Below, in pieces: positions 41,247 through 63,644 of a stretch of DNA of 64,000 nucleotides. The translations under genes were made by a program, and so were the position numbers. This DNA comes from Amoebidium appalachense. Its lineage: Eukaryota > Protista > Ichthyosporea. A model generated the notes under the pieces. That model was not told the origin of the DNA, made no database searches, and saw nothing but the letters and a program-made list of their open reading frames with translations. Within the stretch, counting starts at the first letter, position 1. Each line of letters opens with the position of its first letter. The stretch spans positions 6,709,943 through 6,773,942 of the forward strand of contig CAVNZM010000002.1 in NCBI GenBank assembly GCA_963693365.1, in the 5' to 3' direction.

Positions 41247-41483
41247 TACATATTGGACGTTATTAATTTAGAGGCCCGGGATTGGATGTGAGTTTAAGGG
41301 AACCCGCCCTCTGTGTTTTACGGTATTAAAGGACTGGCTAATGACAAAAACATAAAATGCTGACAAAAAACCAATCGCAATCACCGCCGGCTAATTTGAT
41401 AAGCGCTAATCAAAGCCACGGGTCCTGACAGCAGCTAACGAGGTTTATTAGGCGTTTTCTTAGCTTAGAGTGCGGCGCGTTTC

Positions 41484-42100
41484 TGTGGTATATTATACCG
41501 GATATCTAGTATGGATGTACACAGGTTGAGATATACGCGCACGTGTACATGTATATATACCACTGTGTTTGATCTTAGGTAGGCCAGTATGCATGTCCCC
41601 CCCAGTCTTGTGCGCATGAGCATGGAGTTAAACATATGTGCACGTGCAACTTGCAGGATTATTCATGGGAAAACAGATATAATAGTCACATGGGACCGAC
41701 ACGTAGTAGTCTAGGAACCATGAGCAATAACTTGAAGTTATAGTTTTATCATGGGAAAATATGCAAGTAGCCGTGAGGTATGACTGTGGAATGCATCGAT
41801 AGTCAAGTACTGTCACCCGATTGGCTCACTAAGTTTATTGGAACCGTGATAGCCATGGGACAGAACCGTGAACCGTATGTGATTGGCTCGAAGCCAAAAA
41901 GCACATACCGATGCGCATGTCTGAGCCGCTGTGCGAGCTCCGATATAAGGGCATGTCGGGGGCTTCAGAGCTCACTCAGTGTGCTCGGCTTACTAGGTGT
42001 AAGTAGGACTAGCACGTAACTAAGCAAAGCGTGGTCTAGTCAACCCCGTTCATTTATAAACATATTGTTTGTCACAGACACACGATCTTATTATACAACA
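41484..42100 (+). repeat. Gypsy 5' LTR
   Basis: TGTGGTAT...ATACAACA; I count about 4 substitutions versus the 3' LTR. Confidence 0.97.
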
Positions 42101-42116
42101 GCTGAGCTACACCCCC
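42101..42116 (+). promoter_or_regulatory. Putative primer-binding site complementary to a tRNA-Ala-like 5' end
   Basis: GCTGAGCTACACCCCC directly abuts the LTR; its reverse complement is GGGGGTGTAGCTCAGC. Confidence 0.7.
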
Positions 42117-42432
42117 TGCAGCGCTAGTTCTTGCGCTGCAAGTGTGCTCGTATCAAGCAAGTACTATGTTTTTAGTTGTTTGGGTCCTAACATGTCTAAC
42201 CACCTTGGTGACGACAATGCCGGCCCTAGTGGCCTGCATGGGGGGGAAGCTAGAAACGCCGACCTCATTTTCCTTGAAGAACTCGGCTATAATGTTCCCC
42301 TTTCCCCCCCCGGCGCTTCACCGTGGCACCCTCCTGGAGCAGACATTCCGTTGCTCGACCGTGTCTACTTCCGTTCACACGACTTGCAACACGATCATTT
42401 TTATACAACAGCTGAGCTACACCCCCTACACA

Positions 42433-45036
42433 ATGTGTCCTGTTACCGTCAAGCACGACACCACCGTCAAATCTGGCTTTGGATGTGTATTACGTGCAAC
42501 GGTGCAGGTGACTGCTGCTGCTGCTGCTGCTGGCACCCTCGGTATCTTCGAGCCTACTCGTGAATTTCGAGATAAGTTCCCCCCCACCATCTGTGAAATT
42601 AGTGTGGATAAATCTATTGCTGTTGTGTGCGAAAATGGTGTGGGTCCGGATTTGAACGTGTTCGGTACCATCGGTCATTTCGTTCCTACGAGCCGACATG
42701 AGTACATACACGAACTGAGTGTTTTGCAAGCCGAACCCCACCCCAGTCGTACACAAACCGTCGTTGGTGCAATAGCGCAGTGCATCAGGTGGGCAACGGG
42801 GGGTGGAGAAGGTTGCCTACCCAATTCACCTCCGGCCGTGCCACCGGGCCGGGTGCCTACCGATAACATGTGTGGGCACGAAGGGCATGTGAGTGGGACA
42901 CGAGGCGGTCCGATACACTCACCGATCGACCAATCAATGTGTGCCGTTGATCATGAAACCCCCCCCCCCCCGCGAAAAATTTCGGAAATTTCGGGTGGGG
43001 GTGCACACGATGCCGGCCAGGCTCCCCACGGTTTTGATTGGAATAGGGTGCCTCAGAGTATGCTTCCGGATGTCAAGAAACTATTAGAAGCACACTCTCG
43101 TTGCTTCATCACTACGGACCCCGACGAATTTCCTCAGATGAAAGGATTCACCATGCACATAGACACGGGAGATAACCCACCGATTCGATTAAAACAGTGG
43201 AGGTTGGAACAAGTGAAAGAGCAGGCTGCAAAGGAGATCCTAGAGGATATGTGTCGTAGAGGGCAGATGGAACAAGCACACAGTCAGTATAATTCACCCA
43301 CCTTCGTAATACGAAAACCAAACGGAAAATACCGTCTGCTGACTGATTTTCGTGCTCTTAACAAGCAAATTCGAAAATCTGCCTGGCCCATGCCCAACTT
43401 GCAACAACAAATAGAGAAGTTGGCTGGGTATAAGTATTTCTGTAAAGCTGATATGTCGGGTGCCTTTTACCAAATACTGCTAGACGCTGAGTCACGTGAA
43501 AAAACAGGATTTTCTGTGGCTGGTGTGCAGTATCGTTATTGTGTGGCACCACAGGGGCTAAGTACTTCCCCGTCCCAGCTAGCATCTATCATGACACAGA
43601 TTTTGGCCCCTCTGGCCGATGACGTGGTGGTATATGCCGATGATTTAGCTGTGGGTGCACACACCGAAAAAGAATTAATACAGAAGCTTGACCGACTTTT
43701 CACCCTTCTCGGTGATTATGGAGTTAAGCTCGATGGGGCAAAGACATACATTGGGCTCACGGAAATACCGTTTTTGGGTTGGATTGTAGGTGTGAATGGC
43801 ATTCGGCCCGACCCGAAAAAGGTACAGGCAGTTAAAGATTGGCCGGTACCAAACACACTACACCAACTCCGGGGTTTTCTGGGTATTACTTCGTATCTCC
43901 GCCGTCACACTTTAAATTATGCAGAGCGAGCCCGACCCATGAATGCCGAGTGTTACGGAGAAAAACACCGACAGATAAAATGGACGGACGAATTAGATCG
44001 CTCGTTTATAGATTTAAAATCGGCGTTATCGGAGGAAGTGCTTGCCCTGCCCGATCTTTCCCCCACGGGGGGTCAGTTTCTGATTCGTTGTGATGCTAGC
44101 CGGTTCTCGGAAGGGGCTTGCCTGTATCAAAAACAAAAAGATGGCAAGTTCCGCACGGTGGCATATGCCTCCCGGATGTTTCAACCTTCCGAACGTAGGT
44201 GGAGCAACATCGAACGAGAAACGCATGCAATCTATTGGGCACTGAAAGAGTTTAGGGTATACGTGTATGGTCGAGTTATTACTATAATAATTGTGGAGAG
44301 TGACCATAAGCCCTGTCTTTCGCTTAAAGGTGTCAAACGGATAGCAAACGAACGGATGCAACGGTGGGCTTTGGAAATGCAGGAGTATGATTTCGATCTA
44401 TACTACCGTCCTGGCCCTACCATGCACGATGCTGATGGGTTAAGCCGTATAGGATATATTCTGCATGAGAACGAAAACATACCACTGGAAAAGTGGGATG
44501 TGAAAAAGGAATTACAAGAGGTTCTCACAGCAGATTTATCCGAGCTTAGCTCGAAACCAGCCGAAGTGTTTGTTGATTGGGGTGATGCATTCGAATTCGC
44601 ACACATTTTCGACCCAGACCGCTTGAAATGTGCACAAATTTCTGCACTCAGTCAAGCCGGCCTGCCCTCCCTTTCTGCACTCGGTGGTGCCGGTTATCAG
44701 AAGGAAGCATTTATGATGGCACAGGAGGGGGACAAAATGTGTAAGGATATAATCACGTGGCTCCGGTGGCTTGCCTCCCTCGATGCCGAAGCCAAACGGG
44801 AATGGCAGGCAGGGGGGGAACGAGCTGCACAGGGTCTTAATCTTGAGTATTTCGGATACAAAATGGTTAAGAAGATAGCACAAATGTGTGTGATAGAGGA
44901 TGACGTGCTTTATAATGTGGCTAAGGATGGTCGTCGTTGCCTGTATGTGCCCGAAATCCTTCGTGCTGATTTATTAAAAAGTGTGCACGACGGGGGGGCT
45001 CATACTGGCAATGAACGAACTTACGAAAGAGTACAA
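42433..45036 (+). CDS. Gypsy pol: degenerate linker, reverse transcriptase, RNase H, start of integrase
   Basis: YNSPTFVIRKPNGKYRLLTDFRALNK, PQGL, VYADD, FLG, CDAS, ERETHAI, SDHKP, ADGLSR, HDGGAH; the frame breaks at ~45037. Confidence 0.93.
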
Positions 45037-45037
45037 T

Positions 45038-46294
45038 TATTATTGGCCACGCATGCACAAAGATATCACTGCTTATGTGAATGCCTGCACACAGTGCCAA
45101 GGCCGTAACGATAACCCACACTTGAGAAGTAGGCCATTTGAACAGAGATACGAAAATTTAAAAATGTTCTCTCGTGTTTCTGTTGACCTTATGGGTCCGT
45201 TCACAGAAACGAAAAATGGTAATACTTTCATTTGTGTGTTTATGGATATGGCAACGAAGTATTTAATCACTGTGCCCATCCAATCTAAGCATGCCGTTAA
45301 TGTTGCACATGCACTCATGAATGTAATTTGCTATATACACGGCCCCCCTCGTACACTCTTGAGTGATCAAGGATCAGAATTTCTCAATGAGCTAATTGTT
45401 GAGATTTGCCGTATAGCAAATATTGCACAAGTGAGCACCTCTGCATATCACCCACAAAGCAACGGTTCCAATGAACGGTCTCATAGATTTATTAATAATG
45501 CACTCTCAAAGTACGTTAATTATGAGCACACTAATTGGGACACTCTGTTGCCGGTGGTTACACATGCATACAACACAACAACACACAAAATTTTGCAATG
45601 TACACCGTATTATCTTGTGTACGGGCAAGAAGCAACACAATTCCCTGACGTTGCCCTTCTTAGCAGTAACCACCCGGCACTCAAGGACCCAGAGTGGAAG
45701 GCATACCGGCGAGAGTTACTAGCCCGTCTGCCTCTGCTCCGTGCTGTGGTCCAGCAACGTGCCGTACGAGAGCCCCCAGGCCCCTCGGTGGCTCGTGAAT
45801 TTAAGAAGGGTGCACGGATACGTGTTCGGAATCAAGCCAAAAATATCGGTGCCTGGGATGTACGGTGGATTACGGGTTACGAAATCGTCAAAAGGGTCGG
45901 CCCGGTCACGTACGAGATCCGAAGCTTAGCAACTATGAAGAAATCTAAGTGGCACGTGGACGATATTCAGCTTGAATTGAGTGAGCAAAATAGAATTCGG
46001 CCTCAAGATCTCTCTCACCTCCCGGACACGGGCGATAGTCACAATTTCAACAAGGTTCTGCCGGACGAGTGGGTGGTGGAAAAGGTGCTTGACGTAAGAA
46101 TTCAGAAACGTCGCAAGCAATCCACCCCTTACAAGTGGTACCAGATCAAGTGGGCAGGCAAAGATGAATCATTCACCTCTTGGGAGTGTGAGAAAGACTT
46201 AGCCTGCCCGGACAAGATCCGAGAGTTCCACCAACGCAGAGGTGACCTTGCATCGTTCCACGGATACATTGACTCATTGTGTGGAGCATGGTGA
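45038..46294 (+). CDS. Gypsy integrase core plus chromodomain (frameshifted from upstream pol)
   Basis: YYWPRM..CTQC, VSVDLMGP, SDQGSEF, YHPQSNGSNER; C-terminal chromodomain EWVVEKVLD..YQIKWAG..SWECEKDL. Confidence 0.93.
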   Translation, partial: YYWPRMHKDITAYVNACTQCQGRNDNPHLRSRPFEQRYENLKMFSRVSVDLMGPFTETKNGNTFICVFMDMATKYLITVPIQSKHAVNVAHALMNVICYIHGPPRTLLSDQGSEFLNELIVEICRIANIAQVSTSAYHPQSNGSNERSHRFINNALSKYVNYEHTNWDTLLPVVTHAYNTTTHKILQCTPYYLVYGQEATQFPDVALLSSNHPALKDPEWKAYRRELLARLPLLRAVVQQRAVREPPGPSVAREFKKGARIRVRNQAKNIGAWDVRWITGYEIVKRVGPVTYEIRSLATMKKSKWHVDDIQLELSEQNRIRPQDLSHLPDTGDSHNFNKVLPDEWVVEKVLDVRIQKRRKQSTPYKWYQIKWAGKDESFTSWECEKDLACPDKIREFHQRRGDLASFHGYIDSLCGAW

Positions 46295-46334
46295 CGTATG
46301 TCGAGGATGACATACTTCTTTTTACGGTGGGGCG

Positions 46335-46951
46335 TGTGGTATATTATACCGGATATCTAGTATGGATGTACACAGGTTGAGATATACGCGCACGTGTACA
46401 TGTATATATACCACTGTGTTTGATCTTAGGTAGGCCAGTATGCATGTCCCCCCCAGTCTTGTGCGCATGAGCATGGAGTTAAACAGATGTGCACGTGCAA
46501 CTTGCAGGATTATTCATGGGAAAACAGATATAATAGTCACATGGGACCGACACGTAGTAGTCTAGGAACCATGAGCGTTAACTTGAAGTTATAGTTTTAT
46601 CATGGGAAAATATGCAAGTAGCCGTGAGGTATGACTGTGGAATGCATCGATAGTCAAGTACTGTCACCCGATTGGCTCACTAAGTTTATTGGAACCGTGA
46701 TAGCCATGGGACAGAACCGTGAACCGTATGTGATTGGCTCGAAGCCAAAAAGCACATACCGATGCGCATGTCTGAGCCGCTGTGCGAGCTCCGATATAAG
46801 GGCATGTCGGGGGCTTCAGAGCTCACTCAGTGTGCTCGGCTTACTAGGTGTAAGTAGGACTAGCACGTAACTAAGCAAAGCGTGGTCTAGTCAACCCCGT
46901 TCATTTATAAACATATTGTTTGTCACAGACACACGATCGTATTATACAACA
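46335..46951 (+). repeat. Gypsy 3' LTR
   Basis: Direct repeat of 41484-42100, preceded by a short G-rich tract GGTGGGGCG. Confidence 0.97.
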
Positions 46952-49028
46952 GTTTCTCCTTTGCTTGACTAGTAAACCTAGCCTGAAAATTGGCAGAGGG
47001 GGGTTTCTTGAGTGTATCTAGCGGCGTATGTAGCCGTTTTGTTCGCCTCCTGCGGGAAGTGACGCTTCCTCTTTTCACTAAGTCAGGTAACATGGTACGT
47101 CACGTAATAGTATTGGGAGGAGAAGAAAATCCCTACATACGCCACTTGATAATGAGGTTATATGACTCTCTGCCAATATTGGTTGCATGTTTATATATGT
47201 GGGTGATGTCACAACACGGTATAATAAGGGCTGCTTATAATCACGTTTGGCGGGTCCGGAAGTCCACACTCCACTCCACTCCGAAAACGTAGGGGGCCCC
47301 CCCGGCAGATTCGGCCTTCTTCCACAACCGGGCCGTTTGGTTGGCTGGCGCGGGGCCGGGGTTACGTAAGGCGGTGGGGTCGGGGGAGGCCAGACCACGA
47401 TATGGAGGTTTGGGGGGAGGCCTGCGCAGGGCCTTACGTAAGCCTTACGTAAGGCGGTCAGGCGGGGGCGGGCGCTAGGTAGAGCACGATACGGAAGGCG
47501 TGGGTCTGGGGAGGTTTATGTGGCGAATCGGGCTGCGCGGTTGTGAAACTTGCGCTAATGACGTCGTCAGTAGGGAACCAGTCAGATTCTTCGGTCGTGG
47601 AAGTTGCAGAAGTGGCCTCGTGAGCCGTGATAGTGAACCAGTCGGAGGGCCCGGTTGTGAAAGTTAGCTAATGAGCGTTAATTACACCTGTAGCTTGCAC
47701 AACCGGGCGATACCATTGGGTAGTGGTTTGAAGTTTTATGATTGGATAAAAACCATTCAATCCTTTTGGCGGGTATATATAAACGTAGATCTGGGGGTAG
47801 TATATAATGCAGCAACACGATATTTGACGCTCAGTTTTTATAATGCCGCCGAAGCGAAGCAGAGCAAAGCAGAAGAAAGTTGTACAGCCTCCTTGTGGTA
47901 CTAGTGAATATGCAGTTGCGAGCATAAGCCTGAACATAACCAATGCGGGTGGGAATGTGCGATACCATTTGGTAGGCCTTTTGAATGAAATGGTTGGGTA
48001 GGAATCACGGTATTTGTCTTAGCGGCTAGTGGAGAGGTATAAAAAGGGTGAACACGATATCGTCGATCACTTTGTGACGCAGCGCGGTGTGGAGCAGGGT
48101 ACTCAGAAGAAAGCTGTCTGGAGCGAGCCTTTTTCTTGTTAGTACTGCATAACAGTCAAACTCGAGTGTGGATATCTTTGAACACGAGTAGGAGGTTTCC
48201 TCTTTGTCGAAGTACTGTTTGTTGTTTTTTTGACAAATAGTATGTTAAGATAGTCGCAGAAGTTCTTTCTTTTTACAATTTTTTTATTGCGGACTGCGGC
48301 TCAGAGGAGCTGTCAATGTTAGGCACCTCATAGAATTATGGTCGGATCATTTTTCGAAGCTTGGTGAACATGAATTATTGGCGGCAACTGATCTGAGTGC
48401 GAGGTGATGGCGCTTCAAGCTGAGATTGGTCAGGGCCGGAATCGGATCCCTGACAGGTGCATTGTGGGTCGAAAGACGTAGGGCTACCTTTCGTAAAAAC
48501 GGTTTTTTGCAGTTTCCTTATATGGCTAATCGGATCGAACCGGATTCGATCTGGACCAATCATAAATACCCCTTGGCAGAGTTTCTCGTTACGACACGTA
48601 GGGCTACCTTTCGCGTGTGACAAACGTTGTTCTGCAATGCGGTGATTGGGTAAAACCGCACTAGGTTTCCCGCCAGTCACCGGGGGAGAGATTACGAAAA
48701 ATTACGATTAACGAAAGACCCCGATACGAATGAGGTTAGGGTGCCGTCGTAACAGCTTTCGTATCAGATGTATAGCATTATAAACGCTCTAAGGCCCCCC
48801 AATATCTAACTGTACCTAATTTTTTCAATATTTCTGTTCAAGAACATATCTACAGCGCTTCTCATGAGCAATATCGAACCCTGACAAGTGTCCAGGGCTT
48901 GTAATTGTGCGATACCTAATTTGTAAAAACGCGTATTTTGAGTTTTGTGACTGGAGGGGCGTTTTTAGCTGGGCTTGCAGACCCCAAGAACCCCCCCCCC
49001 CCCCCCCCCCCCCCCCCCGTTACGATTT

Positions 49029-49234: not shown

Positions 49235-50031
49235 GGGAGGGAGTCCCACTCAGGGGAACGTGACTGCAGCGTGTGTGTGGTGTGGCCTGGTGTATTCCTA
49301 CTGCTGTGAGAGTGTGGGGGCATCTCCCTTTCGCGGAGTTTCTTGCTTGAGAAGTGGTTTCTTCAACGCCCTGGTGGTCCACTGCAACCTATGGTAACTT
49401 CTACACGCTGTCTACGCTTCTACGCGACTTATTGGCGGTGGGCGCCTGCTGCAACTTCTTCAGCTACTTCTGCGCTGCGTGGGTGGAGGGGCGGCTACTT
49501 GGTCGTCAGGGAGCTTTCTAAGTGACTGCCAGTCCTTAGCCTCCGGTCGTATGGCAATGACCGGGTTTGCTTGCATGCATTCTGTAATTGTGTTTTTCTG
49601 TGCGTCCTGCCACAACTAGGCCACCTTATCAGAGAGCTAGATGCAGTTTCTCCGGGTTATCTAGGGGCAGGGCCCGTTGGGATTGTTTTTTAGCTCAGAT
49701 TTGGTCTGCATTGATCTTTTCAGAGGCTGACTTGCTTGCTGTGCCTCGATAGATTTTGAGGGGGGCCTGTTGGGAAGGAGCAGTAATGATGTCTTCTTGC
49801 AGAGTGTGGTCTGGTCAACATCGATGCATACGACTAGTTGGAGCAAACTAGTTTCACGCATATACGTACACTTACTGTTTTGCCCGCTGGTGTCCTTTAA
49901 ATTTGTCACTTGTCGCGTTATTTTTATTTCGTAGCTTTGGCTTTTTCAGTTCTATTGGTGGTTATGTAGCCTGTGGCTGCACGTTGCCTTCATCAACGGA
50001 TCAATAAACCCGAGTCAAAAGAAAAAAAAAA
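49235..50031 (+). mobile_element. Poly(A)-ended retroposon/LINE-like 3' fragment, intron-containing copy A
   Basis: High identity to 63164-63626; AATAAA then an A-rich tail; possible degenerate ERxCxxC LINE-type C-terminal motif at the 5' side; 5' boundary uncertain. Confidence 0.65.
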
Positions 50032-51893
50032 GGAACTAGATATCACAGACCATATGGTATCGGGACTGAAAAAGGGGAGGATCGATTCTATGGGGATAGA
50101 TGGGTTTGTGTCAACCCCCGGCCGGTACCTGGTGCAAATCAGAGTACCTAAAACTTTTATAATGACTTTATTGATATGCTCAGCAAAGTAGAAGACCGAT
50201 ATCTCGGAGAAGAAAATACAATAGGCCTCACTCTCGGATATGGAGGAGATAACGACTTAAATAATCATACACCCTAGAAAGTACTCATTAAACATACCGC
50301 GGTTCAACAGATCGATAGTCAATAAACGTAACATCGGGATTATCTAAATAAGCCAGTCTTCTAATTTCTAACGGAATAATCTGAGATAAATATTATTAAA
50401 TACATCTATCTACGTGTTTACGAGAAAAAGATTCTGCACAAAAGTGGCACAAACATTTATGGAAACAAAGGTTACAGCGCCAAAATAAACATTTCCAAGC
50501 TATGTCACAAGGAGGGGTTAGAATTGCAAAATCGGTAAGTGTGGTAGGTTTACGAGAGGAAGGATAAATACCTTACGCGAGGTAAGTAGCTAATTTACAC
50601 AACGCGTACGATTGTAAAGAAAATAGACGAGTCTCTAATATAAAAAGAAGCACAGGCTCAAGAGCCCTACCATGATACTCTTTATCACAACGATGAAGCA
50701 AAGGATATTGAGTATGAAACCAAGTAACATACTGCTGATAACTAGTAGAAGAGAAAAATAAAGGAGATAAGTATTTATAAGGATATCCCGGAATGGGAGA
50801 CTCTGAGATTTGGGATAGGACATTTCGCACGAACGTTAGAGGGAACAGGTGCTAAAGAAGGAAAGAATTGCAACAAAGGATGATATAAGAAGGAAGCCTA
50901 ACCAAATGAAAACAAAAGCGAAGTCCTAATTCATTCATACGCTGGCGCGCCGCGCCGGGAGGGAGACCAAAAACACTAAACGTATATCCTGTTGTTAAAG
51001 GTTGGATTAGCTGCCAGGTAAAGCGTCTGACTCTGGTCTCCACGTTTTCAGGGTAGTCTATCCTATTTCAGCATAAACCATGTGATACTCAATGATTATC
51101 AAACGGTCACCATCCTCGGGAAGTACTGTGTCCGGTAGCCTGAGATATATATATAAGTACTAGTTAGTAAACATTATCTAGTACACAAAAATTTTATACC
51201 TAACGACCCTTTGTTTCAACTCCTGGGTATCAAACTGTGGTATCATCGACTATAATAGGATTCTTGTTCGGAATATTGGCCCAAATTCGGGATATGTTCG
51301 CAAGGTCCGGCTACATAGCTGCTCTCATGATGATCAGTCAGAGTGCAGCACCGTGACGGGAGAGCAACCACGGCCCTCCGGCACAGGCTGAACTTGGGCC
51401 ATTGTTGCAGAGGGCCGTGGAGCAACTCGGGGGCGGCGGCTTGCGGGCGGCCAGACTGAGTGGTTTGATGGCACGTGAGACAGAAAAGTAGCGCGCTGGG
51501 CACCGGGGACCCGCCGATATATCTCTCTCACGGAGTCGGAGTCAGCAGGGCACTCTGTGCCTACTCGGCCCGTGACTCCTGCAGTCGTTTTTCGTTGGCA
51601 GTTTTCTCCCTTCGTTGTGTTGTGAAGGCCGTGGTTCTGAGTCAAGTTAGTAAGTTAGCCGCCATCCGTGTGTGATTTTGAGAGCCTCGGTTTCTCAACA
51701 TCTCTCTCCCTCCGGCCTAGGCTATCTCTCTCTCTCTCTCTCTCGCTTCCTCGGAGTGACTGTCCGCTCCCTCCCTCCCTCCCTCCCTCCCTCCCTCCCT
51801 CCCTCCCTCCCTCCCTCCCTCCCTCCTTCTTGCCCTCCCTCCCCGCCCCTCCCTCCCTCCCTCCCTCCCTCCCTCCCTCCCTCCCTCCTTCCC

Positions 51894-52828
51894 TGTTATA
51901 ATACGTAGTATTTACATATTGTAAGATCTTCTCAGTTCGTGTTATGTTTTCATTCATTTACTTAATGAAAAAGATGTGCTCCTTGTACGTAAATTATGAC
52001 ATCGATCTCCAGTGTATTTGAGTACTTGTAATCGTGTTGTGTCGGCTATATTCGTGTGTTTAGATATCGATTACAGCAACTGATTATAGGTACACGAGTC
52101 TACCCAGTGAGGGAGACACGTGTACATGTTATGTGTACATGAATATCTTCGGTTATAACTGTGTTTTGCTGTTCGTGTTTTCTGTCCTGCTTTCTTTTCT
52201 TTTTCCTCTTTCTTCGTCTTTTCTTTTCTCTTTCTTTCTTCTCTTGTTTCCTTTCATTTAATTATATTTCTCTCTCACTAATATACGTTGAGTAGATTTA
52301 TATTACTCGTTATGTTTTGATTGGTAGAAAAACACTTAGGTTACACTTTAGCTTGTCAGGTATGATTCATAGCTTAGTCAACCACTTTTGTTTTGTGTGT
52401 TGCCGTACTATATCCAATCAGTGGACTTAGTCAGAAAATGTCTGAGTCTTTGTAGCCGATGATAGGTTAGAAACACCACCTCTTTCCTCGTTACTCTTCA
52501 CCTCTTTTCTTTCTTATAGCTGTGACCTATGGTGTGTGTTCCCGCGTCTCCGGATCTATTCGGGAAATAATCAGTTAATTATGATTGGTTATTTTAGACA
52601 TAGATCTGAATTCCGACTGGTCGGAAATCATGTATGGATTTAACTTAAGGGAATTTCAGGTATTTATTAGCGATCAAAATAAATTGAGTTTAGTCGTGTC
52701 TAAACATTGATGTCTGTTGTGTACACTGCTCCGATCGTTCCGTGTTTTGTTGTTGTGTGTGTCTGTGGTGTTTTCACACTGCACCACTGTGTCTCTGCTT
52801 ACATCCTAAATACTTATAGAATTTAACA
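51894..52828 (+). repeat. Copia 5' LTR
   Basis: TGTTATAA...ATTTAACA, repeated at 57741-58675. Confidence 0.98.
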
Positions 52829-52841
52829 GGTTATGCAGCCC
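52829..52841 (+). promoter_or_regulatory. Half-tRNA(iMet)-type primer-binding site with one extra base
   Basis: GGTTATGCAGCCC versus the copia/Ty5-type GGTTATG(A/G)GCCC. Confidence 0.75.
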
Positions 52842-52890
52842 TTTTGCACGCTCCCTACACACATCTAGAACTCGCGCTCGTTTTTCAATC

Positions 52891-53649
52891 ATGGATCCAA
52901 ACAAAACTGGCGTAAACAAAATCACCATGTGGAAAGGTGAAGGGAAGACTGGTCCCGATAGCAAAACTACCTATTTTCAATGGGAAATCATTTTTCTCGG
53001 CATGATGACCGGCACTAAAGGTGTCCGACTCGTGGATGTTGTCCTTGCTGACAACTACGTCCCCCCTACCACCGTCGCGGTTGACGGTGAACCCCCCTTC
53101 TATGGCTACGGCACTACCGCGGAACTCAAAGAGGCCCGCAATTGCCTCCTGCTCCATATGATACAGAACATCGACCCTTCCGTCCTCACCACCGTTGCCC
53201 AGTACCGTATTGGCATGGACCCTGAACGGGCCATGTGGAAATTCCGTCAACACTATCTCCAAGGCAAACCCGATCAGATCCGCATCCTTCACCGTCAGTG
53301 GGATGCCTGTGCCCTTCAGCCCGGTGAATCATTCACCACCTACCTGAGCCGTCTGCAGACCATCGTGAACCAGCTCCAGTCTCTCCAAGATGAGTCCATT
53401 CACTTCACTCGTCTAGCTGAGAAGTTCTTCAATGAACTCACCACCAGAGACGACCTCACCCCTGAGTTCAATCGTCTTATCGAAGACTATCACTTCGGTG
53501 ATAAGCTATTCCCCGACTTCGAGTCCCTCCATAACCACGTCAAGGGCATCGAGTTACGTCAAGACCTCAAGATGCAACTCCGGAACAACCGTGCCCACCG
53601 TGCCTCCAAGTCCAGCATGGCATTAAATGCCAGTGCTCCCCCCCCGTGA
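52891..53649 (+). CDS. Copia gag (N-terminal part)
   Basis: 252-aa ORF with Copia gag-like AMWKFRQHY and LQPGESFTTYLSRLQTIVNQL; ends at CCC CCC CCG TGA. Confidence 0.88.
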   Translation: MDPNKTGVNKITMWKGEGKTGPDSKTTYFQWEIIFLGMMTGTKGVRLVDVVLADNYVPPTTVAVDGEPPFYGYGTTAELKEARNCLLLHMIQNIDPSVLTTVAQYRIGMDPERAMWKFRQHYLQGKPDQIRILHRQWDACALQPGESFTTYLSRLQTIVNQLQSLQDESIHFTRLAEKFFNELTTRDDLTPEFNRLIEDYHFGDKLFPDFESLHNHVKGIELRQDLKMQLRNNRAHRASKSSMALNASAPPP

Positions 53650-56600
53650 TCTTCCTCGCCGTGACTTACGCACCCGACTTGACCGTACCTCTGGCACGGA
53701 CCTCCGAACTCGTCTCTCCCGTCAGCACACCCGATCCCGTTCCCCCCACCGGCCTGCCTTCCGGTCCACGTCTCGTTCCCCCAGTCGTTCCCGTTTCTCG
53801 GGTTCCCGTCGTTCTGATTCCCCGGCTCGTTCTAACACCCCGTCCGTGAAAGAATGCTCCTACTGCCACGAGCCTGATCACACGATCATCGATTGCCCTG
53901 AGCCGAAATGCCGTATGTCCAGACACAACCGTTCCCGTCAAGGCAGTGAGAAATCTGTCTCCTTTGCTTTCTCGGCATACAATGCTAGCTCCGTCCCCGT
54001 GTCCTCCGACCCTGCCTGGGATTCCGGGTGCAACATGACTGTTTGCCCCACCCGTGAGTTCTTCCATGACCTCACTCCCCTTCCGACACCGACTCCCGTT
54101 GCTGCCTTCAATGGCACCCCCGTCTTGGCCACTCACACCGGCCATATCGTCATCAACACCACCACCGACCATGGCACTACCACCCTAACCATTGAAGCCT
54201 ACTACACCCCGTCTGGCCAAGCCTTCCTCATTTCAACATCCCAAGCTGCTGCCGAATACATCAAGGGTGATTTGAACGATGCCTCCACTCCGTCATTCCT
54301 CTTCGACCGACTCACCGGCCGTCATCTCGTCAACCTCCGTCTACACAACGGTCTGTATTACTTCAAGGACTACACCATTCAACCACCCACTCGTCCTGTG
54401 GCTCTGGCTGCCACTACCAGTGTTAACCCATCCATCTGGCACCATCGTCTGGGGCACCGAGCTATGACCAGCATCAAGGACATGGTGAAACACGACCTTG
54501 TTATTGGTCTCCCCTCCTCTGTCCTCGACTGTGATGTTCCTGATTGTCATGGCTGCATTATGGGTAAGACCACCAAGGCTCCGTTCAGGGGTGACCGTCC
54601 TCACTCCAACATCCCCGGTCATGAATGGCATTGGGATTTTTTTGAGCCTACCACAACATCGTACGGAGGTTCCAAGGTTGCTCTCGTCACTGTCTGCCGT
54701 GCCTCTGGCCTCGTCAAGATCTACCCGATGGCCGACCGTACCACCACCCTGGATATTCTCACAGCTCACACCAACCTCGTTGCCACCCATGCCCCCTCCA
54801 AAGTTGGTGTTTACCACTTCGACTCCGGCTCTGAGTTCACCTCCAAGGATACCCGTGCTTTTTGCCTCTCCCAGGGCATCAAGGCCAGCTATGCTCCGGT
54901 GGACTGCCCTCAACTGAACGGCTATGTTGAACGACGTATGCGGTTCCTCCAAGAGATTGTCCGTTGCCTCCTCCATCAAGTCCAAGATCAGTCTCTGTCT
55001 CCCAAACTGTGGGCTGAGGCCCTCCAACATGCCGCCTACATCATCAACGTCACCCCGTCCACGACTGCCAATGGTCGTACACCATTCGAGGTTTTCTACG
55101 GTGTCAAGCCCGACATCTCCGAGCTCAAAGTGTTCGGTTGCCCTGCCTACACTCACGTGCCAGCCTCTAAACGGAACAAGCTGGCCCCCACCGTCAAACT
55201 CGGCATGTATATCGGCTATGATCTTCAATCACACTGCCACCGGATCTTCAATGCCACCACCCATCGTGTCGGCCTCTTCCGTGATGTGATTTTCGACGAA
55301 TCAGCTTATCTCCCGTCCGACATTCCATCAACCCTTCCGACCCCCGACACCACTGCTACCTCGACCACCCCACCCCCCACAGTTGACACTGAAGATGATG
55401 TTTGTCTGGTGTACTCTGGCCCCCCTCCTGCCATCGTCGTTCCCCCGACACCCCCCCCCACCGGCCCCCCTGCCCCCGTGCCCGTCCAGCCTGCCGACCC
55501 TCATCCTGCCCCTGGCAACGTCACACCCATCCGACCCGGCTCCCCCGACAACTTCCACTCGGCCCCATCCAGCCCGGAGGTTGCCCCCCCTGCACTTCCG
55601 AACTTCCAAGTTCCCCCCCCACCGTCTCCACCTACCCCGGTTCCTGCACCCCGTCGTTCTGCCCGTCTCCAGGGCAAGGTTGGACTTCAAGCCACCACCA
55701 CCCTGCCAGTCCCCCCCGATCCCCCCATCAACATCGACCAACTACCCAAACTTGTCCGTCAACTCTGTTCCGGACCCAATGGTGATCAGGTCAAGTCAGC
55801 CCTGACTGCTGAGTATCAAGCCTTCGTCGACAAAGACATCTTTGAACTTGTTGACCCTCCCCCTGGTGCTAACATCGTCGGCTTCAAGTGGATTGTCTCC
55901 GAGAAAACTCTCAACTCGGCTGGTGACACCAAGATCAAGGCACGTGGTGTTGCTCAAGGCTTCAGTCAGCAATACGGTGTTGACTATGAGTTGATTGAGA
56001 GCCCTGTCATCCGTCCGGCTGCTCTCCGTGCCATCCTAGCTCTGGCCGTTGTTGAAGGTCATGACATACATCAACTCGACGTGTCTACGGCCTTTCTCAA
56101 CAGCCCACTCACCGAGACCATCTACATGAAACAACCCCCGGGATTCATCACCATGGCCACACTTGGCAAGGTCTGGAGACTCAAGAAAGCCCTGTACGGC
56201 CTCAAGCAAGCCTCCAAGGCTTGGTACGACTTCCTCGACGGCATTCTTCTTGCCCATGGCCTGACCCGTACTAAGACCGACCCGTGCATCTACCTCCGGT
56301 TCTTCCCCAACAACGATGTGGTACGGGCTGGTAACTACGTCGATGACTCCACCATCACCAACACCCGGGGTTCTACTGCTGCCAGTGACCTGGCTGCCCA
56401 CATCAGCAAGATGGCCAGCTGTCGTATGAGTCCATTTGACCGTATGCTCGGTGTTGATTTTAATCACTCTGATCCCCATCACCTCCACATGCACCAGAGG
56501 TCTTACATCATGGATAACATCCACGACTTCAACCTCACCGATGCCAAGTCCAAGTCTACCCCCATCCCTGCAGGCACCACCGTCTCCCTGGCTGATTGCC

Positions 56601-57298
56601 CCCCCCAACCGTTCACCGTGCCCTACCGTGAGTTACTCGGCCGTCTCCTCTGGGTGGCACGGTGCACACGTCCCGACATTGCCTATGCCATCGGCTTCCT
56701 TGGTCGGTTCAGCACCAACCCCGGCAAGACTCACTGGGACCTTCTCCGTCGTGTGGCCCGGTACCTGCTCGGCACCATTGACCTTGGCATTGACTACAAG
56801 TACTCGGCCACCCAGTCCCCCATACTCGAATGCTACACGGATGCTGACTTTGCTGGTTGTGCCGACAGCAAGAAGTCTACCACCGGCTACATTATCGTGT
56901 TTGCTGGTATGCCCGTCATCTGGTACTCCAAGCTCCAGCCCATCACGGCCACCAGCACCACTGAAGCTGAGCTGATTGCTCTCAATGCTGGCACCCAAGA
57001 AGTTGCTTGGGTCCGTGACCTCTTCAAGGAACTCGGCTGTCCCATGCTTGCTCCGACTCCGGTGTACTGTGACAACCAGTCGACCATTGCCATCGTCAAC
57101 TCCACCGGCATCAAGCACCGTACCAAACACATTGCCGTCCGGTATCACAACACCAAGGACTACATTGCCAGTGGGGACGTGGTTGTCCACTACGTTGAGT
57201 CAGCCCACAACTTAGCTGACATACTCACCAAACCCCTCCCCGGCCCGAGTCATGTCCACCATCGTGCTCGACTTTGTTTACCGGATATTGTGGATTGA
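53627..57298 (+). CDS. Copia zinc knuckle-protease-integrase-RT-RNase H polyprotein (+1 frame relative to gag)
   Basis: CSYCHEPDHTIIDC, WDSGC, WHHRLGH..CHGC, D..DSGSEF..NGYVER, QLDVSTAFLN, KKALYGLKQA, YVDD, YTDADFAG, TEAE, CDNQS, ADILTKPL. Confidence 0.97.
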   Translation: MPVLPPRDLPRRDLRTRLDRTSGTDLRTRLSRQHTRSRSPHRPAFRSTSRSPSRSRFSGSRRSDSPARSNTPSVKECSYCHEPDHTIIDCPEPKCRMSRHNRSRQGSEKSVSFAFSAYNASSVPVSSDPAWDSGCNMTVCPTREFFHDLTPLPTPTPVAAFNGTPVLATHTGHIVINTTTDHGTTTLTIEAYYTPSGQAFLISTSQAAAEYIKGDLNDASTPSFLFDRLTGRHLVNLRLHNGLYYFKDYTIQPPTRPVALAATTSVNPSIWHHRLGHRAMTSIKDMVKHDLVIGLPSSVLDCDVPDCHGCIMGKTTKAPFRGDRPHSNIPGHEWHWDFFEPTTTSYGGSKVALVTVCRASGLVKIYPMADRTTTLDILTAHTNLVATHAPSKVGVYHFDSGSEFTSKDTRAFCLSQGIKASYAPVDCPQLNGYVERRMRFLQEIVRCLLHQVQDQSLSPKLWAEALQHAAYIINVTPSTTANGRTPFEVFYGVKPDISELKVFGCPAYTHVPASKRNKLAPTVKLGMYIGYDLQSHCHRIFNATTHRVGLFRDVIFDESAYLPSDIPSTLPTPDTTATSTTPPPTVDTEDDVCLVYSGPPPAIVVPPTPPPTGPPAPVPVQPADPHPAPGNVTPIRPGSPDNFHSAPSSPEVAPPALPNFQVPPPPSPPTPVPAPRRSARLQGKVGLQATTTLPVPPDPPINIDQLPKLVRQLCSGPNGDQVKSALTAEYQAFVDKDIFELVDPPPGANIVGFKWIVSEKTLNSAGDTKIKARGVAQGFSQQYGVDYELIESPVIRPAALRAILALAVVEGHDIHQLDVSTAFLNSPLTETIYMKQPPGFITMATLGKVWRLKKALYGLKQASKAWYDFLDGILLAHGLTRTKTDPCIYLRFFPNNDVVRAGNYVDDSTITNTRGSTAASDLAAHISKMASCRMSPFDRMLGVDFNHSDPHHLHMHQRSYIMDNIHDFNLTDAKSKSTPIPAGTTVSLADCPPQPFTVPYRELLGRLLWVARCTRPDIAYAIGFLGRFSTNPGKTHWDLLRRVARYLLGTIDLGIDYKYSATQSPILECYTDADFAGCADSKKSTTGYIIVFAGMPVIWYSKLQPITATSTTEAELIALNAGTQEVAWVRDLFKELGCPMLAPTPVYCDNQSTIAIVNSTGIKHRTKHIAVRYHNTKDYIASGDVVVHYVESAHNLADILTKPLPGPSHVHHRARLCLPDIVD

Positions 57299-57597
57299 CC
57301 CGACCTACTTCAAGAGTGATTTTCTCATGTGTACTACTTACTTTATCAACATCATTATATCATATGTATTGCCTTTGTGGGTATGCCCACTTAGGGTTTA
57401 TATATAAGGTTTGACCCGTACCATCACTCTACTCTATCTTTCACTGGTTTAAAACCCAGTTAATCAAACACCGCCTATACACGTTATATATATTCGTTGT
57501 TTTTGCCCCGGTTCCTTCCCCCCCCCCCCTCCCCCCCCCCCCTTCCCCCCCCTTCCCCCCCCCCCCTTCCCCCCCCCCCCTCCCCCCCCCCCCCCTC

Positions 57598-57632
<35 letters not shown>

Positions 57633-57675
57633 GAAAAGTACACACTTTCATTTTTTTTTTCCGTTTCTGTTCTCA

Positions 57676-57740
57676 AGTGGGGAGATTTCACTAGTTCAGT
57701 GGGGATATGATAACACAAACTTCAAAGTCTTAAGTGGGGA
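57676..57740 (+). promoter_or_regulatory. Copia polypurine tract, present in three copies
   Basis: AGTGGGGA at 57676, 57698 and 57733; the last abuts the 3' LTR. Confidence 0.7.
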
Positions 57741-58675
57741 TGTTATAATACGTAGTATTTACATATTGTAAGATCTTCTCAGTTCGTGTTATGTTTTCAT
57801 TCATTTACTTAATGAAAAAGATGTGCTCCTTGTACGTAAATTATGACATCGATCTCCAGTGTATTTGAGTACTTGTAATCGTGTTGTGTCGGCTATATTC
57901 GTGTGTTTAGATATCGATTACAGCAACTGATTATAGGTACACGAGTCTACCCAGTGAGGGAGACACGTGTACATGTTATGTGTACATGAATATCTTCGGT
58001 TATAACTGTGTTTTGCTGTTCGTGTTTTCTGTCCTGCTTTCTTTTCTTTTTCCTCTTTCTTCGTCTTTTCTTTTCTCTTTCTTTCTTCTCTTGTTTCCTT
58101 TCATTTAATTATATTTCTCTCTCACTAATATACGTTGAGTAGATTTATATTACTCGTTATGTTTTGATTGGTAGAAAAACACTTAGGTTACACTTTAGCT
58201 TGTCAGGTATGATTCATAGCTTAGTCAACCACTTTTGTTTTGTGTGTTGCCGTACTATATCCAATCAGTGGACTTAGTCAGAAAATGTCTGAGTCTTTGT
58301 AGCCGATGATAGGTTAGAAACACCACCTCTTTCCTCGTTACTCTTCACCTCTTTTCTTTCTTATAGCTGTGACCTATGGTGTGTGTTCCCGCGTCTCCGG
58401 ATCTATCCGGGAAATAATCAGTTAATTATGATTGGTTATTTTAGACATAGATCTGAATTCCGACTGGTCGGAAATCATGTATGGATTTAACTTAAGGGAA
58501 TTTCAGGTATTTATTAGCGATCAAAATAAATTGAGTTTAGTCGTGTCTAAACATTGATGTCTGTTGTGTACACTGCTCCGATCGTTCCGTGTTTTGTTGT
58601 TGTGTGTGTCTGTGGTGTTTTCACACTGCACCACTGTGTCTCTGCTTACATCCTAAATACTTATAGAATTTAACA
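57741..58675 (+). repeat. Copia 3' LTR
   Basis: Direct repeat of 51894-52828. Confidence 0.98.
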
Positions 58676-58812
58676 TTCCCTCCTTCCTGCCCTTCTCAGC
58701 CCCTCCCTCCCGCCCTCCCTCCCTCCCTCCCTCCCTCCCCTCCCCCCCCCCCCCCCCCCCTCAGGCCCCCCCTCTCTATCTCTCTCTTTCAGATCTCCCC
58801 TCCCCCCCCCCC

Positions 58813-58845
<33 letters not shown>

Positions 58846-58920
58846 GGCTCTCTCTCTCTCTCTCTCTCTCTCTCCGACTCAGAGTCTCTCTCTCCCCCTA
58901 ATTCTCTCTCTCCCTCCCTC

Positions 58921-59029
<109 letters not shown>

Positions 59030-60419
59030 CCTCCCTCTCCCTCACCCCCCTCTCTCTCCCCGCGTCCCTCTCACACTGTCCGCCAGTCTCTCTGACTCTG
59101 AGACTGGCCGAGGAGCGCTAGCTCTCCGAGGTGCCCTCTCTCTCTCTCTCTCTCTCTCTCGCGCCGCCGTTCCCCCCCTCCCCCCACCTCCCCCACTCCC
59201 CTGCCCCACCTGGCTCTCTCTCTCCGAGTCTTCTTCGCCTGAGGCTCTTCAAGCTCTCTCTGCGTCTCTCTCTCCAGGTCAGAGTCTCTAGTCACCGAAG
59301 CTCTCCGAGTGTTCGCTCTCGCTCTCCGGAAACAGAGCCTCTCTCAAGGCTCCCCTTTCTACCTAGTCTCTCAACTGAGAAACTCCGAGAGGCCAGGCCC
59401 CCCCGCCTACCACCTCCTCCCGGGCCCCCTCCAGTTCCCCCCCCCCCCCCTCCCCCCCCCCCCCCCCCCCCGGGGGGGCCAGGCCCCGCTATCCACCTCC
59501 ACCCCCTCCCCAGGTGGCGGCGGCCACCGAGAGTCTCTCTCTCCGGTGGTATGACAATGCCGCTTATTATAGGCCCTGAGTCAGTCCAACAAGTCTGCAG
59601 ATCTCCGGCGGAGTCTTCTTTTACTCGGACCGTTCCCTGGAACTCCACGGTGACCGAGGCCCTGAAGTCCCCCCCCCCCCACTGAGGCTCCCCCCTCTAA
59701 TATCTCAGAGCCTGAGGGTCACCATTTCATTGATAACGACCGTTTAACTTAGACGCGGCAAGAGTCTGCCACATGATCTTCGAAGGGCTTGAGTAAGGTT
59801 CGAGAGTCTCTGGGATAATCATTCCGACTGATGAATTCTCTCTCCGTAAGTTAGGTGACTGAATCAGATCTCTGTTTTTCTCGCTCTCAGACCGTTTCCT
59901 TCTCGTTCGGCCAATCCCCCCCCCCCCCCCCCCCCCCCCGGCCCCCCCCCCCCGAGGGGGGGGCCCTCTCTCTCTCTCTCTGGACTCTGAGTCAGTCCAG
60001 GGGCCTGTCCGAAAGTTTTTCTGTGACTGAGTCAGTGCCACGGTCCGTCTCCGAGAGTCATTTAAGGCCCGGCCTCAAAGGGTCTCCAGTCCGACTCAGT
60101 CCATGCCTTCAAAGTTCAAGTAGCTCTCAGACGATGTCGGGATTCTGCCGGGACTGAGTCTCAGCCTCAGAGTCTCTCTCTCTCTCTTTCCGAAGTCAGT
60201 CTCTCCCTCCCTCGTGCTCCATCCATCCATTCATCCCGGGCCTCCAGGACCTTATCCCTCCCTCCCTCTCGAGACTCCCTCCCTCTCTCCCCCCCCCCCC
60301 AAAAACCCCCCTTCCGCCTCCCACCCTCCCTCCCTCCCACCCTCCCACAGCCTGCCTGCCTGCCTGCCTGCCTGCCTGCATCCGGGCCCCTCCGTCCCTC
60401 CCTGCCTCCGCCGGGCCTT

Positions 60420-60712
60420 CCTCCCTCCCTCCCTCCCTCCCCGGCCTCCCTCCCTCCCAGCCCCCCTCCCTCCCTCCCTCCCTCCCTCCCTCCCTCCCTC
60501 CCTCCCTCCCTCCCTCCCTCCCTCCCTCCCTCCCTCCCTCCCTCCCTCCCTCCCTCCCTCCCTCCCTCCCTCCCTCCTTCCCCCCTCCCCCCTCCCCTCC
60601 CTCCCTCCCTCCCTCCCTCCCTCCCTCCCTCCCTCCCTCCCTCCCTCCCTCCCTCCCTCCCTCCCTCCCTCCCCCCCCCCCCCCGCCGTGTCCCTCTAGA
60701 CCCTCCCTCCCT
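60420..60712. repeat. (CCCT)n microsatellite
   Basis: Directly visible; related tracts at 51770-51893 and 58676-59060. Confidence 0.95.
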
Positions 60713-61256
60713 CAGAGTCATGATAACCACTCAGTGATCATAGCCCGGCACATTCTGTCTTTCGGCGGCGCGGTATATGATGGTGACCGCCGGGAAGGGC
60801 CAGGGTACCGTGACGGCACAGGCATGTCTGGAGGCTTGCTTGGCTCCCGGGCCCGCCGCTGCAGCCTGATATATATGAATTCGATGGGCAAACCGGGGGC
60901 CGGGCACCCAGTGCATTCACTGAGTTCAATCGCGACCGTCGGAGTCGCACGGTGTCAGCCTGCCGCGCTTGGTGCTTCACTTGTCACTGGCAGCTCAGTG
61001 AATTCGAAGAGGCATAGTCTGGGACCGTGACTGCAGCCGGTGACGGTGGCGGCCCCGCGGCTAGCTAGGCCCAGATGAATTCTGGCACAGTGTCAGTCAC
61101 CCACTGCCACTATTGTAGGCTATATGTAGAAGGCGAGTCTTCGGAAGCTTGAAAGTCACGGCGCGTCGCTGACTCCCAGCCACGGACCACGGCCCGTTGA
61201 CCAGAACGGTGACTCAGGCAGTCTGGCTGTGAGTGTCTCCGAGTATGCGTGATGAT

Positions 61257-61289: not shown

Positions 61290-63165
61290 GTGATGATCCA
61301 GATCCGCTCACCACACGATCGTCGGCTGGCCGAAGCCAGTCCAGGAATGCACAGGATATAAATCCTCGGTCCCGGACAGCCATGATTGGTATGTGCACTA
61401 TTGTAGGGGGATCAGGCAATCGACGTATTTTTTTTTGTAGACGCAAGTTCAGGGACATTGAGGACCCAGCTTAATTGTCGCAAATTTGACACTTATAAAA
61501 GCTATTTAGAAAATTCGCAAGATGATTGATTACTGCTTTCTAAATTACGTTTAACGTACGGCCGGGATGCAAATGCACCCTCAGACCCTGGATGCTCCGA
61601 AGTTGGGGTATTGGGAGACTGTTCTTCTGGGCGGTGCACAACACATTCCAGCACCTCCTTAAACCCACTGCCTTTAATCCGCCTTGCCAACACGCCCTAC
61701 TCATCCGAGTCACTGTTACATAAATTTGTGAGGCATTTCGAACCTTCTCTTCAAAATCCTAGAGTTTATTCTTCACCCTTCTGTTTTAAAATAACGCTTC
61801 AAGTCATTTCGTTTTTAATGGAAATTATTTGTGTTTTGCAAAAAATAGAAAAGAAAAACATGGGAAAGGTTTTTGCCAGCACTGGCTTCGGACCATTGAA
61901 TCTTGAACTTTGGCATAAAAAATAGAAATCTCATGATCATATGCATGTGTCACGTGATTACACAATCACAGTGGGCCACAACATTGTAAAGCAAGTTACT
62001 GAATATCAGCGTATATTTACGGCCGAACTAATGTTTAATGAATTGTTCCCGGAGATATTTACAGAAATTTCTAAGCTTCAAAATTTTCGTGTTATATGTA
62101 TATTGCTGCTACTTTATTTTTACCTGAGTGCGTTGGTGGGCGAAATTTCCCTTGACGTAAATTCAGCCTACTTCCTCAATAAAAACAGTGCATCCCCACC
62201 AATTTCGGCCACCAACGCACTCGGTTATAATCAGCAACAAATTCATTACGCATACAAGGAAGATTAGATAATATTTATATATTATTTGACTTCTGGATCG
62301 CTTATTATCATCGCAATAATTTGCAGATTTGTACGTACGTGTTCGGTACAAGGCCTAGGGGACGTTTTGTATGCACCCAATCACATTGTAAAAACAAATT
62401 GCCCACGTAAATATTAATCTGCCCACGGGTCGTGCCACACTTTTACAATCGATTATTGTTAAGTTATTTTTAGAATTGATATAGTGAATTTTGCTGCAAC
62501 ATTTTACGTGGAACGTAAGACCAAGCAACCTGCATTGTATATACGTATATAGTATATAATCTGATTTTTGGATAGACTCCGAATTTCGGACGGTCCTTGC
62601 GTCACTACAATAGGCCACTCCGGATCGATCGCCGTCCGCATAAAGCGCACAATAGTCAGTGTTCAGTCCGACGCAGAGAGCACAAGGACAATAGAATATC
62701 TATAAACATTAATATATAAAAAGAACATTTAACATTTTGCTAACTACCATATAATACTTATGACAAATACGGTATGTTATACAATTACCACACATGCGCC
62801 GAAGTCATGAATCATGATATTCATTTGGGACTCCACCTTTAGATCCCAACTGATTGTGAACCAATAAAAAGGAGAGCAAGTAGCCGGCTGCGCCGCAGAT
62901 CTCGCGCCAGATGATAGATCATTGTATATGCCTTTTCAGCGCAGATAAGCGGAAGAATCATGAGAGCCCTTCAATCTATACTCTCATAGTTTTTCTTAAC
63001 AATTTTATCGAGTTTCAATATTCAGTTGTTTCAAGTTTTTGCTTTCGACTACCGACAACGATCTACAAACTCCTAGATCTGGAAACATTCATGCTGATAA
63101 CCCATCCCGAACTGTGACCGTGGCTCAGTGCACGTGAGTCAGGTTGCCTCGATACGTATTACCGG

Positions 63166-63644
63166 GCATCTCCCTTTCGCGGAGTTTCTCGCTTGAGAAG
63201 TGGTTTCTTCTACGCCTGGTGGTCCACTGCAACCTATGGTAACTTCTACACGCTGTCTACGCTTCTACGCGACCTATTGGCGGTGGGCTGCTGCAACTTC
63301 TTCAGCTACTTCTGCGCTGCGTGAGTGGAGGCCCTGGGGCGGCTACTTGGTCGTCGGGGAGCTTTCCAAGTGACTGCCAGTCCTTAGCCTCCAGTCAGTG
63401 TGGTCTGGTCAACATCGGTGCAGCAGCATATGACTAGTTGGAGCAAACTAGTTTCACGCATACACGTACACTTACGGTTTTGCCCGCTGGTGTCCTTTGT
63501 CACTTGTCGCTTTATTTTTATTTCGTAGCTTTGGCTTTTTCAGTTCTATTGGTGGTTATGTAGCCTGTGGCTGCACGTTGCCTTCATCAACGGATCAATA
63601 AACCCGAGTCAAAAGAAGAAAAAAAAGGGGGGGAAAAAAAAAAA
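63166..63644 (+). mobile_element. Spliced, 5'-truncated retroposed copy B with target-site duplication
   Basis: Matches 49318-50031 minus 49549-49802; AATAAA plus A-tail; TSD GTATTACCGG at 63156-63165 and 63645-63654. Confidence 0.9.

Follow-up and report, generated by a model that had tools for sequence, protein, structure and literature searches.

A chromodomain-containing Ty3/gypsy retrotransposon in a 64,000-nucleotide stretch of Amoebidium appalachense DNA (the window) probably uses the 5' end of an Ala-type host tRNA to prime its minus strand; a D-loop cut at about nt 14-16 would generate the primer. This reading, which rests on sequence comparison, is considered the best one because the match between the primer-binding site and a tRNA 5' end lies far beyond chance and because a close tRNA-Ala-like sequence is present in sequencing run X6. 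Priming by a 5' tRNA fragment had been proposed in an initial annotation of the window and gains from both observations, although the rival explanation of self-priming had been undervalued there. The main features of the element are the following:

41484..42100, forward strand: 5' LTR, TG..CA, 617 nt, with an 8-nt terminal inverted repeat that has one mismatch
42101..42116, forward strand: candidate primer-binding site, exact complement of nt 1-16 of a tRNA (Ala type), adjoining the LTR
42106..45108, forward strand: open frame encoding reverse transcriptase, RNase H and the beginning of the integrase
44978..46294, forward strand: integrase core and chromodomain, in a different frame past a break near 45030
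46326..46334, forward strand: short purine-rich tract, its G run stopping 2 nt short of the 3' LTR
46335..46951, forward strand: 3' LTR, adjoined by the target duplication at 46952-46956

The two LTRs (41484-42100 and 46335-46951) are 617 nt each with 4 differences between them, and the insertion is bordered by a 5-bp target duplication, GTTTC, with copies at 41479-41483 and 46952-46956; the element is young. Pfam domains follow the gypsy order RVT_1, RT_RNaseH, Integrase_H2C2 and rve, and the domain after the integrase is a chromodomain (PF00385, E 4e-9). The acidic residues of the reverse transcriptase (RT) and RNase H are invariant across 25 aligned proteins, query included. The copy itself is broken by the frame break near 45030 and by an internal deletion, at which family contigs hold at least 462 extra bases, and neither gag nor protease gave a Pfam match in this copy. 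The element was found whole or in part in 20 of the 24 listed runs; no RNA dataset is named as carrying it, and two RNA-like runs have a small share. In run X6, internal element contigs reach depths of about 1070-1380 against 40.5 for the flank contig, which points to a family of roughly tens of copies, depth not being the same as copy number. Since three distinct contigs of this run span across the insertion, joining 41447-41483 to 46952 onward, empty insertion sites exist and the target is either a repeat or polymorphic.

The DNA around the element is that of a repeat-rich eukaryote. GA, CA/GT and long runs of C or G are very abundant at positions 1-41200 and 58700-61000 of the window, where the GC content is about 50%, and 49318-49554 and 49803-50033 recur at 63164-63628 with about 92% identity as a dispersed repeat. 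Additionally, a young copia element occupies 51894-58675, with 935-nt LTRs that have one difference, a TTCCC duplication and an intact pol frame. Its primer-binding site starts GGTTATG, which is presumably of the half-tRNA-iMet type, and looks as if it had one extra base.

The bases directly 3' of the terminal CA of the gypsy 5' LTR, 42101-42116, read GCTGAGCTACACCCCC. TGG is absent from the 40 nt at the LTR edge, which bears out the earlier observation of non-TGG bases directly after the LTR and does not fit priming from the CCA end of a tRNA. The range first annotated, 42091-42117, contains the site but also includes the 10 terminal nt of the LTR. Matches to the reverse complement of 42101-42116 were found in 99 stretches of viral contigs; with ARAGORN at a relaxed threshold, 79 of them received a tRNA call, and in 77 of these 79 the match begins at tRNA position 1. 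Because so many of the tRNA-called matches start there, the 16-mer can be read as a tRNA 5'-end signature, on the basis of phage and prokaryote-type tRNAs. It is mostly that of tRNA-Ala (65 of the 77) and also that of other tRNAs. Many of the 20 viral matches that gave no tRNA call (L010, L016, L024, L032 and similar loci) look by eye like tRNA 5' halves broken at the anticodon, the pattern expected of integration scars.

The complementarity of the site extends up to tRNA nt 1 and no further. With 60 host tRNA ends and 4 offsets assumed, the chance of such a match was calculated as 6e-8, 3e-6 and 6e-5 for 0, 1 and 2 mismatches, respectively. The two retroelements of the window contain approximately 24,400 16-mers, both strands counted, and the two copies of the site (the second is described below) are the only ones that differ from a tRNA 5' end by 2 mismatches or fewer; here, the reference comprised 336 distinct 5' ends, in which the hit at 42101-42116 is built into the set, so that the remaining positions serve as the null. 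No tRNA or Rfam hit was obtained in the window.

Four sequencing runs were searched with the tRNA-Ala of locus L003, which carries the exact 16-mer, as bait. Run X6 yielded four contigs that align to nt 1-28 or 1-33 of the bait with 2-3 other letters, at depths of 687, 250, 75 and 38.4, which makes the tRNA-Ala-like sequence multicopy, with 2 differences within nt 1-28. A high-depth contig begins exactly at tRNA position 1. The contig at depth 38.4 has a unique flank and a depth similar to that of the element flank contig (40.5), which ties it to the same organism as the element without proving this. All four are distinct from the element's own site, whose complement leaves the bait after nt 18. 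Of the differences in these contigs, 0-2 may sit inside nt 1-16; one is probably located at nt 20, the position at which eukaryote-type tRNAs of the analysed loci depart from the bait. The alignments cover nt 1-33 at most, short of the anticodon, and the assignment to Ala is tentative. Runs X9 and X15 gave no contigs on this bait, a blank that is possibly false, and run X19 gave two with 6-9 differences, which look bacterial. A host tRNA with the matching 5' end, as called for by the initial annotation, may be represented by the multicopy X6 contigs, with the reservation of their 2 differences in nt 1-28 and of the two blank runs.

Conservation of the site within the family was proposed earlier as a check, and one family contig (record 17 of run X4, covering 41833-42185) shows the site unchanged, together with an 11-mer of the leader that is discussed below; the record departs from the element by 3 letters and one insertion, none of them within the site or the 11-mer. 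No site variant occurs among the 40 variant rows listed for run X6 (there are 74 further rows), and run X13 has 4 other letters relative to the element, 3 of them without a location. A second copy of the LTR end and site, overlooked in the initial annotation, is located inside the element:

42389..42427, forward strand: second copy of the LTR end and primer site, with 42395-42418 in place of the deleted internal segment

The inserted piece is bordered by microhomologies of 6 nt (42389-42394) and 9 nt (42419-42427). The internal site copy, 42411-42426, is identical to the primer-binding site and the neighbouring LTR piece differs; the last 8 bases of this copy are common to the sequence beyond the junction. 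The copied piece terminates at the end of the primer site. The arrangement of 42389-42427 is the one expected from an aberrant jump onto plus strong-stop DNA, and an RNA template switch fits too.

The LTR itself holds a second complement of the site, which was likewise overlooked at first:

41944..41948, forward strand: TATA-like box, predicted from sequence
41976..41980, forward strand: initiator-like TCAGT, predicted from sequence, with a start near 41978
41979..41989, forward strand: leader 11-mer, candidate self-primer or relic, pairing with 42101-42112

The TATA-like box and the initiator-like motif are presumptive. The 11-mer starts at the initiator-like motif, 34-35 nt past the TATA-like box, and pairs with 42101-42112 over 11 bp, with one G-U pair and one bulged base and with its 3'-terminal base opposite the first base of the site. 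This is the best anchored duplex in the LTR, and it was reached in 7 of 300 whole-LTR shuffles and in 1 of 300 shuffles inside a 25-nt zone that was picked post hoc. In the predicted fold, 11 of the 12 duplex positions form with a probability of 0.94-0.99 and the final 4 bases of the site stay single-stranded; the z-score of the leader is about -3. The initial judgement that self-priming finds only a partial complement in the LTR is contradicted by this 11-bp pairing next to an initiator-like motif. Pairing of the mRNA 5' end with the site over 9-11 nt had been named as an observation that would speak against tRNA priming; the 11 bp come close to it, with an imperfect duplex and a transcript start that is predicted. 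The leader complement and the tRNA complement are both non-random signals. The predicted tRNA duplex is about twice as strong as the leader duplex (-35.7 vs -16.5 kcal/mol) and would retain -29 to -34 kcal/mol with one change at nt 5 or 16; displacement of the cis fold by the 16-mer is predicted at -15 to -22 kcal/mol and would occur even with one mismatch.

The strongest competing explanation is Tf1-like self-priming, in which the transcript would start near 41978, its first 11-12 nt would pair with 42101-42112 and RT/RNase H would free them as the primer; the tRNA match would then be either left over from an earlier primer or recently captured. The position of the duplex at the initiator-like motif, its rank within the whole LTR, its fold score and the chromodomain of the element speak for this model. 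Tf1-type elements self-prime and fold into a pretzel of three duplexes (PMC4600332, 10.1101/2022.12.06.519325), and in the present element the flank downstream of the site can pair with LTR sequence after the 11-mer at a level reached in 25 of 1000 shuffles for one flank window but in 163 of 1000 with the window shifted, and the upstream duplex, at 187 of 1000, is not beyond chance. The imperfection of the leader duplex, with its G-U pair and bulge, counts against self-priming without excluding it, because the cis duplex of an unrelated sushi-like element, L231, is no stronger (-16.1 kcal/mol). Erasure of a self-primer mismatch by copying of the site from the primer was considered as strong evidence and dropped, as Ty1 and Ty3 do otherwise: in these elements the primer is not copied into the site (PMC7472051, PMC5371799), so that an imperfect self-primer could persist. 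Self-priming does not account for the stop at tRNA nt 1 or for the final 4 bases of the site, and the RT belongs to a clade of its own, apart from sushi-like proteins, a joining of the two not being rejected (AU p 0.07). The tRNA reading is favoured because its match is less likely by chance, perfect over 16 nt, 4 bases longer and ends at nt 1; self-priming is considered rather unlikely, with a chance that still deserves attention.

Two further explanations carry less weight. The primer could be the 5' end of RNA from a SINE-like, tRNA-derived repeat, or an intact tRNA could bind as a helper, with the 3'-OH supplied by another source. The alignment of the host sequence to the bait over nt 1-33 only, short of the anticodon, would suit this pair of explanations, and Ty3 uses additional tRNA contacts beyond the priming end (PMC5371799). 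The exact start of the high-depth contig at tRNA position 1 and the lack of any tRNA or Rfam hit in the window argue against them, as does the absence of TGG near the LTR. Two tRNAs, stand-ins for those of the host, were also compared with the transcript from their nt 17 on, and no second complement exceeded 8 nt. This pair of explanations is quite improbable. Least likely is a chance resemblance to tRNA in an element that uses some other priming mode, comparable to the unexplained polypyrimidine sites of Skipper. Rare coincidences do arise when very many elements are scanned, and Skipper elements have neither TGG nor self-complement (PMC5006619), but the probability per element is 6e-8 to 6e-5 and, elsewhere in the two elements of the window, every position has more than 2 mismatches to any tRNA 5' end.

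With regard to its relatives, word-based searches found proteins of at most about 39% identity, and a full HMMER search recovered closer unnamed ones at 39-44%. In a tree of 59 rows (19 of the 150 rows listed and 40 earlier rows including the query, one short row having been dropped), the RT groups with 10 environmental proteins (SH 99), apart from the classic chromoviruses. A 33-row tree agrees, placing the query in an 11-member unnamed clade (SH 99-100 over both trees), whereas earlier trees lacking these closer relatives had left the RT without a placement. The trees are quick ones, built without a mixture model and without Tf1 itself; joining the clade to the sushi-like proteins P0185 and P0189 is disfavoured at an AU p of 0.07, short of rejection. 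Going by these comparisons, the element behaves as a chromodomain gypsy element and is at most a putative member of the Tf1/sushi group. The members of the unnamed environmental clade are P0225, P0232, P0237, P0253, P0259, P0261, P0282, P0283, P0301 and P0308; chromodomain matches were obtained in 4 of the 8 relatives scanned and weak protease matches also in 4 of 8.

Relatives with accompanying DNA were sought as well. The RT query found none in viral or metagenome contigs, and alignment A3 found none in viral or prokaryote genome contigs, while the search with alignment A2 returned one distant sushi-like element with DNA. This is L231 (110-7082), a whole gypsy element filed among the viral contigs; it has a non-TGG site, and the imperfect self-complement of this site amounts to about -16 kcal/mol. 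The pattern of LTR end plus site occurred at 10 viral and at least 119 metagenome loci (about 180 in all, with flanks taken for 80), and none of 131 loci, namely the pattern loci listed and 2 further ones, gave an RT or integrase hit.

Under the preferred reading, priming from the tRNA 5' end, a host tRNA of the Ala type would anneal by its 5' end to 42101-42116 next to the LTR, and a cut in the D-loop at about nt 14-16 would supply the primer 3'-OH. The geometry would be that of Tf1 self-priming, in which an RNA 5' end lies on the site adjoining the LTR, with the tRNA given in trans. Tf1 RT/RNase H reportedly frees Tf1's own primer. An element-directed cut is the route we infer as preferable because of this Tf1-like geometry and the intact RNase H residues: an intact tRNA would be unwound onto the site and cut by the element's RT/RNase H at the end of the duplex. 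Alternatively, a ready-made tRF-5a of 14-16 nt could serve as primer. The primer 3' end would fall at nt 14, 15 or 16; the purine run falls 2 nt short of the 3' LTR, and trimming of the same 2 nt at the primer would put its stop at nt 14. The leader 11-mer could be a relic of self-priming or part of a fold that masks the site until the tRNA displaces it. The label 5'-oligo-G type, given to the candidate fragment in the initial annotation, is not confirmed by PMC9527309. Fragments of the tRF-5a class are 14-16 nt long and cut in the D loop region (PMC10988313), and the half-tRNA primer of Ty5 is made by host RNase P (PMC5371799).

Known priming systems resemble the present one in part. Like Tf1, Tj1, Tosmo and Tcn1 of the Tf1/sushi group, the element is a chromodomain Ty3/gypsy element with a non-TGG site adjoining the LTR and an RNA 5' end as proposed primer, and it too has an 11-bp leader complement. 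In contrast to that group, whose sites do not complement a tRNA, its site is a perfect (16/16) complement of tRNA nt 1-16, its leader duplex is imperfect and its RT falls in a separate clade; Tcn1 elements are described as having no tRNA-complementary sites (PMC6317226). The half-tRNA priming of copia, Ty5, Osser, Bryco, Bianca and fungal Helenus likewise uses a cut host tRNA rather than its CCA end (PMC6317226, PMC10886601, PMC5371799), but those copia-type systems pair with the anticodon arm, whereas the present gypsy site would pair with the acceptor 5' strand and D stem of a primer of 14-16 nt. In plants, half tRNAs are reported in the copia superfamily only (PMC6317226). Ty3 and other CCA-primed gypsy elements share the domain order and TG..CA LTRs, and Ty3 RT is the best solved-structure match of the element's RT (E 9e-50), but the element lacks their TGG. 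Dictyostelid Skipper is also a chromodomain gypsy element without TGG; its site, unlike the defined tRNA complement found here, is a degenerate polypyrimidine tract without an identified primer (PMC5006619).

A plant survey distinguishes three primer types, namely the whole tRNA, a half tRNA produced by a cut in the anticodon stem, and the self-primer, and reports 6% of elements without a detected site (PMC6317226); its per-element primer tables (Additional files 1 and 5) may hold tRNA 5'-end sites among that 6%. The sites treated in PMC10886601, PMC4139406 and PMC12471100 lie at the tRNA 3' end or internally, and PMC9527309 and PMC13191261 add nothing further on tRNA 5'-end priming. The literature searched, main texts with few subscription papers among them, yielded no description of a site that complements the 5' end of a tRNA. 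If the best reading holds, this variant of tRNA-fragment priming is new; self-priming from the same leader is a live competing explanation. A broader and more tentative scenario, somewhat doubtful as a whole, is that an unnamed chromodomain gypsy clade has turned Tf1-style self-priming outward, its RT annealing and D-loop-cutting the 5' end of tRNA-Ala as a fourth type of primer, and that the family keeps a decayed self-primer, the switch being caught in one leader. Since this leader holds a perfect tRNA complement and an imperfect self-complement, interconversion of self-priming and tRNA priming is testable in a single RNA. If tRNA priming is true, nt 1 to 14-16 of a tRNA would constitute the fourth primer type, very short 5' tRNA fragments would have a direct job in reverse transcription, and sites of this kind would escape tools that seek TGG.
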